Below, in pieces: positions 228 through 5,370 of a stretch of 5,370 nucleotides of DNA. Each line of letters opens with the position of its first letter. Positions within the stretch are counted from its first letter, which is position 1. The DNA lies in NCBI GenBank assembly GCA_963693365.1, contig CAVNZM010000125.1:1-5370 (forward strand), given 5' to 3'. Origin of the DNA: Amoebidium appalachense (taxonomy: Eukaryota > Protista > Ichthyosporea). A program made the translations under genes and the position numbers. The notes beneath the pieces are model-generated. The model searched no databases. It was not told the DNA's origin and worked only from the letters and a program-made list of their open reading frames with translations.

Positions 228-286
228 TTATTTTCAAGTAAAATTTAGTGTATTTTCATAGCAAGTTTATTCCTTTTCTTAACCGC

Positions 287-442
287 CATTAGTGAGTAAT
301 TTCAATACTTAGCTCTAACTAAATGGTAGAATACTCTCCGGGTTAGCTTGCTTCCAGGGGGAGTTAGGTATTCGAGCTAAATCTTTAAATGACAGTGAGC
401 ATTTTCAGCCATTTACTAAATACAAAAATTATTACATTCACC
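287..442. repeat. Structured direct repeat, copy B
   Basis: Diverged copy of 71-227. It ends next to the 3' end of the SSU rRNA. Confidence 0.9.
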
Positions 443-449
443 CAAGGAC

Positions 450-2045
450 ACTCCTGATTCCTGCACGATCCCATGCGAGTTTGGGCTCCTCAGAGTCCAA
501 ATTCACCTTGTACGAGTAAGGAGAATTTTCCAAGAGTCTCTAAAAAGCCTTCTCGCTAAGAGAAGAGTCTTATGCTCTTGTCATCATACGACGACAAGCT
601 CGTTGGAAACTCGCAACTCGCATTCTGAGCCAAAGAATGTAGCATCCATGCCTTCTATACTCTTAAACATGAGTTTATTAAGATTCTACGTTTTGATCTA
701 CAAGGCTCTCATACCATTAATACACGAGTGTTAGGACTCCATGACTGCTTCAGGTTGTTGGTGTACTCTATTCCGCTGAGACATGTCAGCGGACTGACGA
801 AAACCTGGCTGCATTAACTGTCGTGGTGCAAGATTTCTTCCAGGTGGAACGAATAGTCTTAATGTTTACATCAAGAGCTATCTCTTACTTTCGTGGGTAC
901 ACTCCGGGTGTGACTATTAGCTTTATTCTCTTTATTACCTTACAACTTCTTTATCTCGATTCTCCTTACGGATCAACGTTTACCTAGAATGGGCATCCCC
1001 GATATTTTTCTTGCGCTTATACTACGATACTACACATGGCACTTCATACCGTTTGCAGCTCAAGCATTGTTCACCAGAAGACCTCGTGGAGGGTTTCAGT
1101 TAATTCTTCCAGTATATACAATTGACTTATGTGACCTCTTTACATAGCCCGTGTCATTGTTTGGGTTCCAAACCTAATATTACAATTATTAGTGGTTTTA
1201 CTTCTGAGACGCAAAAGCCTACTAGACAAATTTCACAACGACTTATTTAAGATCACAAATACTAGGCTTGCGGATAGTACTAGACTATTAGATTAGTAGC
1301 AGACTCGATGATTATACCTCCAATACACAAATGTATGCTTTTCTCTTACAACCTTATTTACGCGCGTAGTTTACACTTACTTATACCAGAACTAACTAGA
1401 GGCTACCCATTAGCTAAAGGAATTTACCGCTTCCAGCTTTTATAGAGTTTTTATCTGTTGATCTGGAAACTTCTAATTCATTTATTCAATCGACTTGTGA
1501 GACATTGATCCTGTCATTGAGTTCAGCATGCATTCCAACTACTCTTTTAGGCCTAGCATATTAGTAATGTAGCCAAAATTAATTACTAAATTAGCGGCTT
1601 TTTATGGCACTTATAAATCTTCATTCAATGTATTATCTTAGTTTGGATCTTGAAGTATTGAGTAATCTATACAAGTAACATTCTGTAGCTATAACACCAA
1701 GTTGGTAATGCACTAGTCTTGGGAGTGCCTTTCGACTTTGCTAACTAGCTCAATCTGGGGTTCACCCTACATTCTTAATCTATTTATATATGCAATCCTT
1801 TACTTTTTCTGGTACAGATAAGAGGATTAGGTAGTAACTCTTTACCATCCTATGTGCTCCAATCTAAACTTGATACACCTCTCGAGCCGCGTCGGTGCAA
1901 TATTACTTGAGAGCTCTTGTTCCAATATTAATCTAACACCAATAGCTCATGATCGCACTATCAGTAATCTTGGGACTTGAACTCGTCCACGTGGTTAATC
2001 TTACGATATCTATTTACGAGACCTACTAGTTGCTAATACTATTGT
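450..2045 (-). rRNA. rns: Highly divergent small-subunit rRNA, mitochondrial type; ends approximate
   Basis: Degenerate antisense SSU landmarks occur in the correct order over ~1.6 kb: tcaccttgtacga (~503; cf. TACCTTGTTACGA), ccattaatacacgagtgt (~714; cf. CCATTGTAGCACGTGTGT), ctgacgaaaacctggctgca (~794; cf. CTGACGACAGCCATGCAGCA), aagatttcttc..cgaat (~830), cgtttac (~977), attcttccag (~1103), atttcacaacgactta (~1230), tttacgcgcg (~1357; 530 loop), attccaactact (~1532), ctaactagctcaatc (~1741; cf. CCAACTAGCTAATC), gacttg..gtggttaa (~1974-1998). Confidence 0.8.
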
Positions 2046-2703: not shown

Positions 2704-2900
2704 TTAATAAATGAAAATTAAGAAAGCAATTATTAACACAAATAACACCACAGCTTCAGTTAAAGCAAAACCTAAGATAGGGCTATAAAATAATTTCTAT
2801 AAATAACATTTAATAATGTTGAGAATATTATTCTAACCCCAACACCAAATAATCCAATAGTAATTAATCCTGCTACAATAAAATTAAATTCCTGTACCCT
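2704..2900 (-). pseudogene. atp9: ATP synthase subunit 9 (c) pseudogene
   Basis: One frame reads (AGG)VQEFNFIVAGLITIGLFGVGVRIIFSTLLNVIYRN. A shifted frame reads LFYSPILGFALTEAVVLFVLIIAFLIFIY*, matching the Atp9 ILGFALxEA signature. AGG stands where ATG is expected, and a frameshifting deletion follows RN. Confidence 0.9.
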
Positions 2901-3021: not shown

Positions 3022-3041
3022 TTGAGAAGGTACTATATCAT

Positions 3042-3247
3042 TAGGTATTGAAGAACTCTCGTCGGGAAGGGTCCAACTAGAGAGATCCTGCGCATTCAGG
3101 AAAAATTCTGCGTACTTAGGAGAGAGTCTGCGCACTTAGAAGGAACCTTATCGCCAGACAGAAGTCTATACTCTTGCCTTAACTGGCAAACACACCTACA
3201 GCCAAAGACTAAAAAGGTCAGTACTCTACCAATTGAACTAAATACCT
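3042..3247 (-). tRNA. trnK: tRNA-Lys(UUU) interrupted in the T-loop by the long element
   Basis: Acceptor AGGTATT/AATACCT, D-arm GTTCAATTGGTAGAGT, loop CT-TTT-TA. The anticodon stem is partly mismatched. Confidence 0.8.
3059..3192 (-). mobile_element. Long T-loop insertion (family L), 134 nt, three 20-bp subrepeats
   Basis: Homologous to 3683-3802, 4035-4174 and 4886-5004. Confidence 0.8.
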
Positions 3248-3269
3248 AAAGAAATTAATTACATAAGAT

Positions 3270-3370
3270 CGATAATACCCGGATTTTAACCCAGAACCAT
3301 TAACGTGACAAGTTGTCTTGCCGTGGTAACTATGGACGTTCCAATGCTTTACCAATTAAGTTACATTCTC
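3270..3370 (-). tRNA. trnD: tRNA-Asp(GUC) interrupted in the anticodon stem
   Basis: Acceptor GAGAATG/TATTATC. Removing 3315-3342 restores TTAAC-TT-GTC-AC-GTTAA. Confidence 0.85.
3315..3342 (-). mobile_element. 28-nt anticodon-stem insertion (family A)
   Basis: GGAACGTCCATAGTTACCACGGCAAGAC; homologous to 5159-5186 and 5302-5329. Confidence 0.8.
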
Positions 3371-3403
3371 GCACTCAATTAACTGAAGATTGAGTTTTTA
3401 ATC

Positions 3404-3513
3404 CATATATTTAAAAACTTGGTACCTACGGAAATCAACGGAACTTTCGCGGTGCTCCAACCTTCGACCGTATTTTTATGAGGAACATGCTCTAACAATT
3501 GAGCTAAATACTG
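3404..3513 (-). tRNA. trnM: tRNA-Met(CAU) interrupted in the T-loop by the short element
   Basis: GCTCAATTGTTAGAGC, CT-CAT-AA, GAAGG-TT[37]CAAGT. The first two acceptor pairs are mismatched. Confidence 0.8.
3422..3458 (-). mobile_element. 37-nt T-loop insertion (family S)
   Basis: One substitution from the consensus GGAGCACCGCGAAAGTTCCGTCGATTTCCGTAGGTAC. Confidence 0.85.
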
Positions 3514-3560
3514 AAGCTATTATTATACAAACATAATAAATCATATACGATTAAATGAGA

Positions 3561-3645
3561 TTCTTCAGAAAGGACTTGGTACCGACGGAAATCGACGGAA
3601 CTTTCGCGGTGCTCTAACCTTTAACCCTTCGTTTAACAAACAAAG
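3561..3645 (-). pseudogene. trnN: 5'-truncated tRNA-Asn(GUU) with the short T-loop element
   Basis: TTTGT-TT-GTT-AA-ACGAA, then AAAGG-TT[37]CAAGT-CCTTT-CTGAAGA. No adjacent D-arm or 5' acceptor strand. Confidence 0.7.
3579..3615 (-). mobile_element. 37-nt T-loop insertion (family S)
   Basis: Two substitutions from the consensus. Confidence 0.85.
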
Positions 3646-3665
3646 GATATAAGTGTGAATACCCG

Positions 3666-3857
3666 CCAGAAAAATAGGACTTTCGCTGGGAAGAGTCCAA
3701 CTAGCTTAGGAAAGATCCTGCGCAATTAGGAAAGATCTTGCGCACTTGAAAGTAACCTTGTCGCTAGACAGAAGTATATACTCTTGTCTTAATCAGCCAA
3801 CAAACCTATAACCTCTCATTTCCAAAATGAGTGCTCGACCAATTGCGTTATTTCTGG
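3666..3857 (-). tRNA. trnP: tRNA-Pro(UGG) interrupted in the T-loop by the long element
   Basis: CCAGAAA/TTTCTGG, CTCAT-TT-TGG-AA-ATGAG, ATAGG-TT[120]AAGT-CCTAT. Confidence 0.88.
3683..3802 (-). mobile_element. Long T-loop insertion (family L), 120 nt, two subrepeats
   Basis: Homologous to the other three L copies. Confidence 0.8.
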
Positions 3858-3886
3858 GAGATCTAGCTAAAGATTAATTAGAATAA

Positions 3887-3966
3887 CCGAATAAGGCAGA
3901 ATTCCAATCTACTGTTCCTCAATGAAGTTATTTTCAAGAGAGCTTGCTTCCAAAGCGCCTCTTTCG
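3887..3966 (-). tRNA. trnS: Degenerate tRNA-Ser(UGA), no insertion
   Basis: CT-TGA-AA loop, long variable region, GTAGA-TTGGAAT-TCTGC. Several stem mismatches. Confidence 0.65.
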
Positions 3967-4017
3967 AACATATCAAAAAGGATGTAGCATCAAGGATACA
4001 AGTATAAGAATTTGTAA

Positions 4018-4229
4018 TAAACATAATAAGACTTCCGCCGGGGAGGACCCAACTTTAGTAGGAAGGGTCCAACTAGCTTAGGAGAGATCTTGCGCACTTA
4101 GGAGAGATCCTGCGCACTTGGAAGGGACCTTGTCGCTAGACAGAAGTCTATACTCTTGTCTTAACCGACTAACAACCTTACAACAATAGTATTTGCTATA
4201 CTAGACTTTACTAATTGAGCTATATCAAC
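4018..4229 (-). tRNA. tRNA with GCA at the anticodon position (Cys-like), long T-loop element, mismatched acceptor
   Basis: GCTCAATTAGTAAAGT, TAGTA-TA-GCA-AA-TACTA, T-stem GTAAG/CTTAT. Position 33 is A rather than U, so identity is uncertain. Confidence 0.6.
4035..4174 (-). mobile_element. Long T-loop insertion (family L) with an extra 21-nt segment, 140 nt
   Basis: Standard L body at 4056-4174 plus ccgccggggaggacccaactt at 4035-4055. Confidence 0.8.
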
Positions 4230-4258
4230 AAACTAATCATACAAAGGAAGGAAGTAGA

Positions 4259-4330
4259 TGCAACATAGTGGAATTGAACCGCGATTATTGACATGAAAAA
4301 TCAAAGCCCTAACCATTAGACTAATGGTGC
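4259..4330 (-). tRNA. trnE: tRNA-Glu(UUC), uninterrupted
   Basis: GCACCAT/ATGTTGC, GTCTAATGGTTAGGGC, TTGAT-TT-TTC-AT-GTCAA, T-loop TTCAATT. Confidence 0.88.
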
Positions 4331-4351
4331 GAAGAAGAGTAAATAATAAAA

Positions 4352-4467
4352 CGAAGAGAGTGAGACTTGGTACCTACGGAAATCGACGGAACTTTCGCGG
4401 TGCTCCAACTCACGAATCCAGAATGTAAAATTAGCAATTTGAATGTTTTACCAAAAGCAATCTCTTC
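4352..4467 (-). tRNA. trnS: tRNA-Ser(GCU) interrupted in the T-loop by the short element
   Basis: Perfect acceptor GAAGAGA/TCTCTTC, TT-GCT-AA loop, long variable region, GTGAG-TT[37]CAAGT-CTCAC. Confidence 0.85.
4370..4406 (-). mobile_element. 37-nt T-loop insertion (family S)
   Basis: Consensus copy, identical to 4760-4796. Confidence 0.85.
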
Positions 4468-4509
4468 TCTATTATCTTCTTGATTATCTTTGCATTACTA
4501 GTATAGTGT

Positions 4510-4583
4510 AGTGTAAGAGTGAAGTTAAACCACTAACCTTTGACGCCACAAATCAATAATCTAACCAATTGATCTACTTACAC
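4510..4583 (-). tRNA. trnH: tRNA-His(GUG), uninterrupted
   Basis: GTGTAAG/CTTACAC, GATC/GATT D-stem, TTGAT-TT-GTG-GC-GTCAA, AGTGG-TTTAACT-TCACT. Confidence 0.92.
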
Positions 4584-4605
4584 ATAGATATGTAACACGA
4601 TAACA

Positions 4606-4715
4606 TAGAGAGAGAAGGATTTGGTACCTATGGAACTTTCGCGGTGCTCCAACCTTCGAACCTTAGAAGGATATCATTTACAGTGATACGTTATTGATCA
4701 CTCAGCTACCATCCT
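4606..4715 (-). tRNA. trnY: tRNA-Tyr(GUA) interrupted in the T-loop by a shortened S element
   Basis: TATCA-CT-GTA-AA-TGATA, variable arm CCTT/AAGG, GAAGG-TT[27]CAAAT-CCTTC. Confidence 0.85.
4624..4650 (-). mobile_element. 27-nt deletion variant of family S
   Basis: Lacks 10 nt between the two internal cggaa direct repeats. Confidence 0.85.
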
Positions 4716-4741
4716 GAAAGCAATGCTAGGTTATGTAATAG

Positions 4742-4860
4742 TATCTCTGGTGAGACTCGGTACCTACGGAAATCGACGGAACTTTCGCGGTGCTCCAACT
4801 CACAAGACTATTTATCATTGTATCCTAAGTACAATTCATTGGCCAATTCAACACAGAGAT
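4742..4860 (-). tRNA. trnL: tRNA-Leu(UAG) interrupted in the T-loop by the short element
   Basis: Perfect ATCTCTG/CAGAGAT, TTGTA-CT-TAG-GA-TACAA, long variable arm, GTGAG-TT[37]CGAGT-CTCAC. Confidence 0.9.
4760..4796 (-). mobile_element. 37-nt T-loop insertion (family S)
   Basis: Consensus copy. Confidence 0.85.
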
Positions 4861-4868
4861 GATAAACA

Positions 4869-5059
4869 AATTGATAGCAGAACTTTCGTAGGAAGGGTCC
4901 AACTAGCTTAGGAGAGATCCTGCGCACTTAAGAAAGATCTTGCGGACTTGGAAGGGACTTTGTCGCTAGACAGAAGTCTATACTCTTGCCTTAACCAGCA
5001 AACAAACCTACAGCCGTAATCTTGTAAGAATTATGCTTTACTAATTGAGCTAAACACCA
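4869..5059 (-). tRNA. trnV: tRNA-Val(UAC) with long T-loop element; acceptor strands do not pair
   Basis: GCTCAATTAGTAAAGC, TAATT-CT-TAC-AA-GATTA, GTAGG-TT[119]AAGT-TCTGC. Acceptor TGGTGTT vs TATCAAT. Confidence 0.78.
4886..5004 (-). mobile_element. Long T-loop insertion (family L), 119 nt
   Basis: Homologous to the other three L copies. Confidence 0.8.
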
Positions 5060-5095
5060 GAAGGACATAAAAGAAAATACCTATGATGAGACTTG

Positions 5096-5132
5096 GTACC
5101 TACGGAAATCGATGAAACTTTCGCGGTGTTCC
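5096..5132 (-). mobile_element. 37-nt T-loop insertion (family S)
   Basis: Three substitutions from the consensus. Confidence 0.85.
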
Positions 5133-5158
5133 AACCCATAACAAATTCATTGGAAGTG

Positions 5159-5186
5159 GTCCTGCAGTGGTAACTCTGGACGTTCC
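5159..5186 (-). mobile_element. 28-nt anticodon-stem insertion (family A)
   Basis: GGAACGTCCAGAGTTACCACTGCAGGAC. Confidence 0.8.
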
Positions 5187-5238
5187 AAATACTCTACCGA
5201 TTGAGCTACAGAAGTGTGAATAGGTACTGAAATAGCTG

Positions 5239-5275
5239 GTACCTACGGAAATCGACGGAACTTACACGGTGCTCC
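5239..5275 (-). mobile_element. 37-nt T-loop insertion (family S)
   Basis: Two substitutions from the consensus. Confidence 0.85.
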
Positions 5276-5301
5276 AACCCATAACAAGCTTATTGGAAAT
5301 G

Positions 5302-5329
5302 GTTCTGCGGTGGTAACTATGGACGTTCC
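5302..5329 (-). mobile_element. 28-nt anticodon-stem insertion (family A)
   Basis: GGAACGTCCATAGTTACCACCGCAGAAC. Confidence 0.8.
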
Positions 5330-5370
5330 AAATACTCTACCAATTGAGCTACAGAAGTGGGAATAGGTAC

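Follow-up and report, generated by a model that had tools for sequence, protein, structure and literature searches.

A probably mobile small repeat at one T-loop position of tRNA-like genes in mitochondrial-type DNA of Amoebidium appalachense

The window analysed here, positions 1 to 5,370 of contig CAVNZM010000125.1 of the ichthyosporean Amoebidium appalachense (assembly GCA_963693365.1), carries 15 tRNA-like genes, annotated by landmarks, on the minus strand of 3040-5370. Eleven of these 15 genes are interrupted directly after position 55 of the T-loop by one of two element families, a composite repeat of 119-140 nt (L, four copies) and a shorter element (S, seven copies). Comparison of the L copies with one another and with related public contigs indicates that L probably belongs to the small mobile repeats of mitochondria, that it likely entered the T-loop through short matching ends and was then copied between genes with similar T-arms, and that it is likely never spliced out. 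L's preference for this one T-loop spot is its only unusual feature.

All four L copies lie on the minus strand, between position 55 and R57-A58-G59-T60 of their hosts: a 119-nt copy in Val(TAC) (4886..5004), a 140-nt copy in a Cys-like (GCA) gene (4035..4174), a 120-nt copy in Pro(TGG) (3683..3802) and a 134-nt copy in a Lys-like (TTT) gene (3059..3192). As the initial annotation had stated for these genes, the element follows positions 54-55 and takes the place of C56, which is missing from all four L genes and present in all seven S genes (Fisher p 0.003); only one of the four uninterrupted genes of the array has C56. Positions 54-55 themselves are TT in two L genes, GT in the Cys-like gene and TG in the Lys-like gene. 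The heptamer CGAAAGT, whose final four letters are T-loop positions 57-60, stands at the Val and Pro junctions and, as had also been noticed, recurs within S (6/7 copies). The T-stem shows a bias as well: positions 50-51 read TA in 4/4 L genes versus 1/11 other genes (p 0.004).

The four copies are 80-91% identical in pairwise comparison and have a common build. A variable 20-bp minisatellite of two or three units had been proposed, and we found two units each in the Val, Cys-like and Pro copies and three in the Lys-like copy (15-20 of 20 matches), although the periodic part proved wider than described. Identity at a lag of 20 is 0.41-0.49, above all 500 shuffles in each of the four copies. 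On the plus strand L opens with 20-mers that keep one phase, namely a terminal unit, the two or three core units and a degenerate unit; the remaining 48 or so bases are non-periodic and contain two 5-bp stems. The segments that flank the units are themselves in-phase degenerate units (11/20 and 13/20 in the Val copy), and the terminal unit starts with five bases that are T-loop positions 57-61 on the opposite strand. In the Val copy, the unit array including these five bases spans 4881..4947 (+), and the non-periodic end with its two small hairpins (TAGAC/GTCTA and TTGCC/AGCAA) spans 4957..5004 (+). The extra length of the Cys-like copy is due to an additional terminal unit of 21 nt and not to a core unit.

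The TAGAC/GTCTA hairpin had been attributed to L as a whole, and it holds for half of the family: this first stem is perfect in two of the four copies and has one uncompensated break each in the Pro and Lys copies, and the second stem is perfect in one. Two separate hairpins at this end are predicted in 1/4 DNA folds. Single-strand folds of L fall slightly under those of shuffled sequences (z -0.6 to -2.4), the covariation term of the consensus fold is positive (+1.25), and 2/35 of its pairs show a double change; L folds show no structure under selection. The reported lack of an open reading frame (ORF) and of group I/II hallmarks was borne out, in that no L copy contains an ORF of at least 50 aa and Rfam, searched to E 1, returned neither an intron nor a ribozyme. 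No target-site duplication surrounds L, the flanks differing between the two sides in 4/4 copies, and the terminal inverted repeats characteristic of miniature inverted-repeat transposable elements are lacking (2-4 of 12 terminal bases complementary). By inspection, L is less than half G+C, near the base composition of the window. The possibility that L is itself a decayed tRNA was dropped, as it gave just a low-score ARAGORN call at 80% and no Rfam match. Three L patterns had no matches in viral contigs.

The host genes show varied degrees of decay. In Val(TAC) (4869..5059, minus strand, as are the other three) only two of seven acceptor pairs form, and the Cys-like gene (4018..4229) has A at position 33, the aberrant GT at 54-55 and 4/7 acceptor pairs. 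Pro(TGG) (3666..3856) is the best preserved L host, with 6/7 acceptor and 5/5 T-stem pairs, and the Lys-like gene (3042..3247) combines a 7/7 acceptor stem and TG at 54-55 with a weak anticodon stem. Acceptor mispairing is found in all gene classes (L genes pair 19/28, S genes 37/49, uninterrupted genes 24/28), so decay is general and extends beyond the L hosts; the T stems of the L genes pair 19/20. When L was removed in silico, ARAGORN called none of the four L genes at its default score, 2/4 at 90% and 3/4 at 80%. Removal of S restored 3/7 genes at the default score (Leu, Tyr, Ser), and Leu(TAG) and Ser(GCT) are then well formed (acceptor 7/7, T stem 5/5). An Asn(GTT)-like gene (3561-3670, minus strand) carries S and has no recognisable D arm. 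From these CCA-less, partly mispaired tRNA genes, together with a frameshifted remnant of atp9 (ATP synthase subunit 9) split over two reading frames at 2704..2900 (minus strand), which sets the mitochondrial-type context, we infer that the window is a decayed duplicate of mitochondrial-type DNA. This pseudogene setting had gone unrecognised in the initial annotation, whose interpretation as a whole is partly supported.

Acceptor strands of different genes also match one another. The 3' acceptor strand of the Val gene (4869-4876) pairs 7/7 with the 5' strand of the Cys-like gene (4223-4229); shuffling gives p ~0.05 for such a swap of 3' ends, and an exchange of tRNA 3' ends through recombination between L copies is suggested for this pair. 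A second possible case of end swapping involves the Lys gene and that at 5221-5358, the 5' strand of the former pairing 7/7 with the 3' strand of the latter.

Twenty public runs contain the window wholly or partly, none of them recorded as RNA. Six were compared, all as assembled contigs, for which summed depth is no measure of copy number; readings were taken from 30-letter loose ends among those listed and may include contigs from other organisms or haplotypes. Long unique stretches of the window show no differing letters in the listed pieces of 4/4 runs. A Val-like gene without L is present in runs X6 (record 25), X1 and X2; its loop reads TTCAAGT, its 3' end and flank differ from those of the window gene, and in X6 its depth is 22.3 versus 21.3 for unique window DNA. 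Comparison of this paralog with the L gene shows one base lost and none duplicated. Paralogs free of S, also with other flanks, were found for Leu (X6) and for Tyr (X15; acceptor fully paired). No contig skips L in the Val gene in 4/4 runs, and no skip of L or S is among the joints listed in the other contig comparison; such counts have no bearing on splicing.

L sequence is not confined to these T-loops. The initial annotation had named widespread L copies at unrelated sites as an outcome that would refute its reading, and this outcome is partly seen, as L units do stand at other sites in the public contigs. The left 63 bases of L sit within longer arrays on contigs of up to 3808 nt: record 20 of X6 (3808 nt) matches 4881-4943 with one difference and continues into more units, and loose ends before 4881 continue as units in at least three X6 and at least five X1 contigs. 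A full L copy is found in X1 record 1 and X2 record 10, which match 4881-5006 with 8 differences and have further units in front (joint 4936 to 4881). The match covers the bases of 57-61 and 54-55 and ends before G53; judging from its end at 5006, this copy apparently lies outside a T-arm. More T-arm-linked copies were seen too, namely a second Val-like gene with L, a copy beside a Pro-like T-arm flank, and in X2 a T-arm-linked variant that lacks the hairpin end. At a further locus, covered at single-copy depth in X2 and X6, the Val-type 3' end stands beside L units and the flank is a different one.

These observations suggest a likely route of entry and spread. A donor repeat with the ends TT and AAGTT would have exchanged with the T-loop sequence TT-C-AAGT, through DNA repair on microhomology, so that C56 was replaced. 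A single exchange of this kind would give the identical junction seen in every L copy. L would then have reached further tRNA genes through gene conversion along a common variable-loop and T-arm flank, genes with 10-12 bases of variable loop and T-stem in common serving as copying partners; such copying would produce the T-stem bias and would need no dedicated enzyme. The L hosts would be pseudogenes in a decayed duplicate of mitochondrial DNA, L-free paralogs supplying the function, and crossovers between L copies may exchange tRNA 3' ends.

Several points weigh against this account. The acceptors of the Pro and Lys hosts are still well paired, and the L-free paralogs looked for, and observed, are those of the Val-like gene. 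The full copy that appears free of a T-arm has about half the depth of unique DNA in X2 (4.6 versus 9.0) and lower depth in X1, and it may come from a second haplotype or a relative. Assignment to the mitochondrial compartment is inferred from one pseudogene and tRNA features. A suggestive kinship of L to a dispersed repeat at 546..603 appears in pairwise tests only and is absent with a profile. Finally, S, unrelated to L or weakly related at most, sits at the same bond next to many different T-stems; gene conversion alone does not account for this, and a hot spot of breakage or a factor that targets the bond is suggested.

S is a 37-nt element with 86-100% identity among its six full copies. 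It lies between positions 55 and 56 on the minus strand, in Leu(TAG) at 4760..4796 and in six further genes at 5239-5275, 5096-5132, 4624-4650 (a 27-nt copy), 4370-4406, 3579-3615 and 3422-3458, and it is a clean insertion that keeps C56. The initial annotation placed L and S at the same T-loop site, which is correct for 4/4 and 7/7 copies, and drew from this a common ancestry or targeting mechanism. Common ancestry was not shown: whole-element likeness is at chance (p 0.11-0.71 without flanks, 0.06-0.33 with 5-nt flanks), and an L profile picks up none of the S copies. A post hoc test of the junctions alone gave low values for Val and Pro (p 0.003 and 0.009) and 0.58 and 0.89 for the other two. 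L and S share a bond and differ in signature, C56 being lost by one and kept by the other; the differing fate of C56 and the T-stem 50-51 bias of L make a shared mechanism doubtful.

One form of this idea holds that a single factor, cutting or stalling at the 55/56 bond, placed L and S there independently, the two perhaps descending from one repeat unit. A nuclease specific for structure or sequence could be such a factor, or a reverse transcriptase that switches template on tRNA. We consider this reading, the main rival, rather unlikely. The eleven interruptions at one position, the four different T-stem 5' strands among S hosts, the first 17 nt of S, which align by eye with the L terminal unit, and the low junction values for Val and Pro all speak for it, but they are set against the chance-level likeness of the whole elements, the unlike junctions, and the lack of any nuclease or reverse transcriptase found in the window. 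Moreover, S also occurs next to sequence other than a T-loop (X6, loose ends behind 4797 and 3459), and a third family of 28 nt (GGAAC...AC) strikes elsewhere: its copies at 3315-3342, 5159-5186 and 5302-5329 (minus strand) interrupt the anticodon stems of Asp(GTC) and two Gly/Trp-like genes, each behind a TT. Also rather unlikely is a T-loop homing system, in which two or more unrelated mini-elements, L and S among them, make use of a factor cutting or priming at 55/56; its bolder form, with the inserts removed as a new class of T-loop intron, is very improbable. If true, T-loop homing would inactivate tRNA genes serially and drive duplication and 3'-end swapping in mitochondrial tRNA clusters. 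Very improbable, from what the sequences hold, is the proposal that L is a new kind of tRNA intron, cut at 55/56 or 56/57 to leave a 7-nt T-loop without C56. The initial annotation had argued that excision would not restore a canonical T-loop; this holds for C56, yet shortening the cut by one base leaves a loop of 7 nt, which is possible in both registers. Since three of the four uninterrupted genes lack C56 as well, its absence alone does not exclude splicing, and the nearly complete T stems of the L genes would also suit an intron. In the 55/56 register the 4-bp central helix of a bulge-helix-bulge motif pairs at 4, 3, 3 and 2 of 4 positions; however, the inner helix pairs at just 1/3 in all four copies (0-1/3 across 8 cases), the central helix falls to 0-1/4 in the 56/57 register, and the full motif does not form. 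Group I introns are no better a match, as U and terminal G fit 3/4 copies in one register only and the body is a 20-bp array, nor are group II introns, the ends being TGTT/GTT and CG/CGA with no Rfam match. L also varies in length and shows no covariation, its hosts have other lesions beside a dead atp9, and L-free paralogs keep C56. Where intact paralogs exist, splicing is unnecessary. Lastly, the window could be a nuclear copy of mitochondrial DNA in which L, S and the other repeats, inserted in the nucleus or before transfer, decay along with it. Decay of both protein and tRNA genes, and the roughly 2 kb of window that match nothing, fit this; yet the L-free Val-like paralog equals the window in depth in X6, and run X4, with 17 million letters, covers the window about 250 times, as would suit a high-copy replicon. 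We regard a nuclear copy as quite improbable.

Returning to L as a small mobile mitochondrial repeat, its closest known kin are the dispersed hairpin repeats of mitochondrial genomes, and by analogy it may work like them. Double-hairpin elements are described, in the accessible text of two studies, from the mitochondrial DNA of Allomyces and chytrids and of Schizosaccharomyces (10.1101/2022.12.06.519325; PMC2800124), where they were screened at >75% GC, occur between genes and within rRNA genes, and are reported to stay in transcripts. On these descriptions, L resembles them as a small non-coding repeat without flanking duplication, probably in mitochondrial-type DNA and possibly with two hairpins, and differs in not being GC-rich, in its weak hairpins, its 20-bp array and its location in tRNA T-loops. 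Other repeats of this kind are the short inverted repeats of Glomeromycota, yeast GC clusters, Neurospora PstI palindromes, Podospora MUSE1 and the repetitive hairpin elements of sponges, which the available sections of the sources place in intergenic regions, introns, rRNA and some protein genes (PMC3787672, PMC7218506, PMC2800124). As far as those sections go, L is like them in being dispersed, presumably mobile and recombinogenic, with several families per genome, but unlike them in its repeated use of one tRNA T-loop bond and its replacement of C56. L shows the occupied and empty site versions and the copies at several loci of mitochondrial dispersed mobile repeats as a broad class, its empty sites being paralogs and not alleles of the same locus. 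Cyanobacterial small dispersed repeats, as excerpted, are built of roughly 20-bp units that stand in tandem, their number varying, and are possibly mobile (Elhai et al. 2008, cited in PMC2884548); by that description they are set apart from L, a composite of 119-140 nt, and lie in a bacterial chromosome.

Bulge-helix-bulge tRNA introns of archaea and red algae occur at non-canonical T-loop positions, with related sequences in different genes. L is like them in being a T-loop insertion in several tRNA species; it is unlike them in having no full bulge-helix-bulge motif, in its decayed hosts, in its mitochondrial-type setting and in its L-free paralogs. A cyanobacterial or bacterial tRNA gene array of the type called an L-array, going by the portion of PMC8421152 consulted, was rejected: gene order differs from the trn operon of Nostoc PCC 7120, same-amino-acid identity to that operon is 0.43-0.71, G+C is 0.32-0.39 versus 0.54, and there is no HNH match. 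No report of repeats inserted into the T-loops of mitochondrial tRNA genes was found in a search that covered papers outside subscription and a minority of supplements, and two motif strings were absent from the literature searched.

Reports of small mitochondrial repeats usually place them outside RNA that is critical for function, and the accessible text on their mode of movement leaves open whether this is DNA transposition or proceeds through RNA intermediates (PMC2800124). If the T-loop bias is real genome-wide, it would offer a direct handle on the movement of such repeats, with empty paralogs at hand; if the elements are merely passengers in dead copies, they are a tidy, modest example of organelle genome decay. 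Annotation overlooks such clusters, and ARAGORN recovered just two of the 15 genes of this array (His and Glu).

Further features of the window bear on its setting. A 30-residue frame at 2707-2796 matches Pfam ATP-synt_C at E 0.0011, below the curated cut-off. In PDB searches this frame matches one half of mitochondrial subunit 9/c and a second frame, at 2775-2912, the other (best E 0.0004 and 0.0012); as the halves lie in different frames, atp9 is broken. The best N-terminal matches are presumably yeast structures. The atp9 match is the single credible one in Pfam among 16 long and 40 short frames, four weak ones (E 0.05-0.22) having been dropped. None of the 15 tRNA genes encodes CCA, the variable arm of the Tyr gene is long, and the anticodons belong to the one-per-family kind; these tRNAs may resemble those of fungal mitochondria. 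G+C is 0.34-0.42 in 500-nt windows. About 2 kb of single-copy DNA at 620-2700 has no Pfam or Rfam match, and a reading by eye of 500-2300 as rRNA was abandoned, being not above shuffles (p 0.25) and without an Rfam rRNA match. In blastn, the window had only short weak matches among phages and plasmids, and 450-2400 had none in E. coli. A heptamer, A[AG]TACCT, occurs eight times on the minus strand (17, 156, 372, 2535, 2550, 3034, 3049, 5228), at tRNA 3' ends and in repeats.

The remaining repeats show several further relationships. S motif searches returned no viral contigs, and the six metagenome and three genome matches, all nine single and with unrelated flanks, were taken as chance. The short S copy and the 28-nt family of the anticodon stems have a short module in common (p 0.009-0.09). 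A 143-bp tandem duplication at 5094-5370 comprises a tRNA gene with both S and 28-nt insertions, so at least one S copy has spread by duplication. The dispersed repeat at 546..603 (plus strand) has two hairpins, many different flanks in the public contigs and high depth, and it resembles the hairpin end of L at p 0.005-0.01 in 2/8 pairwise tests, the profile being negative. Another dispersed repeat has copies at 28-189 and 244-405 (plus strand) and a third whose end lies at 1-19, with high summed depth and many variants in 4/4 runs. Summed depth over S and over the 28-405 and 546-603 repeats is far above that of L, and that of S far above unique DNA. A 37-nt part of the 28-405 repeat resembles the L core unit on the opposite strand (p 0.05).

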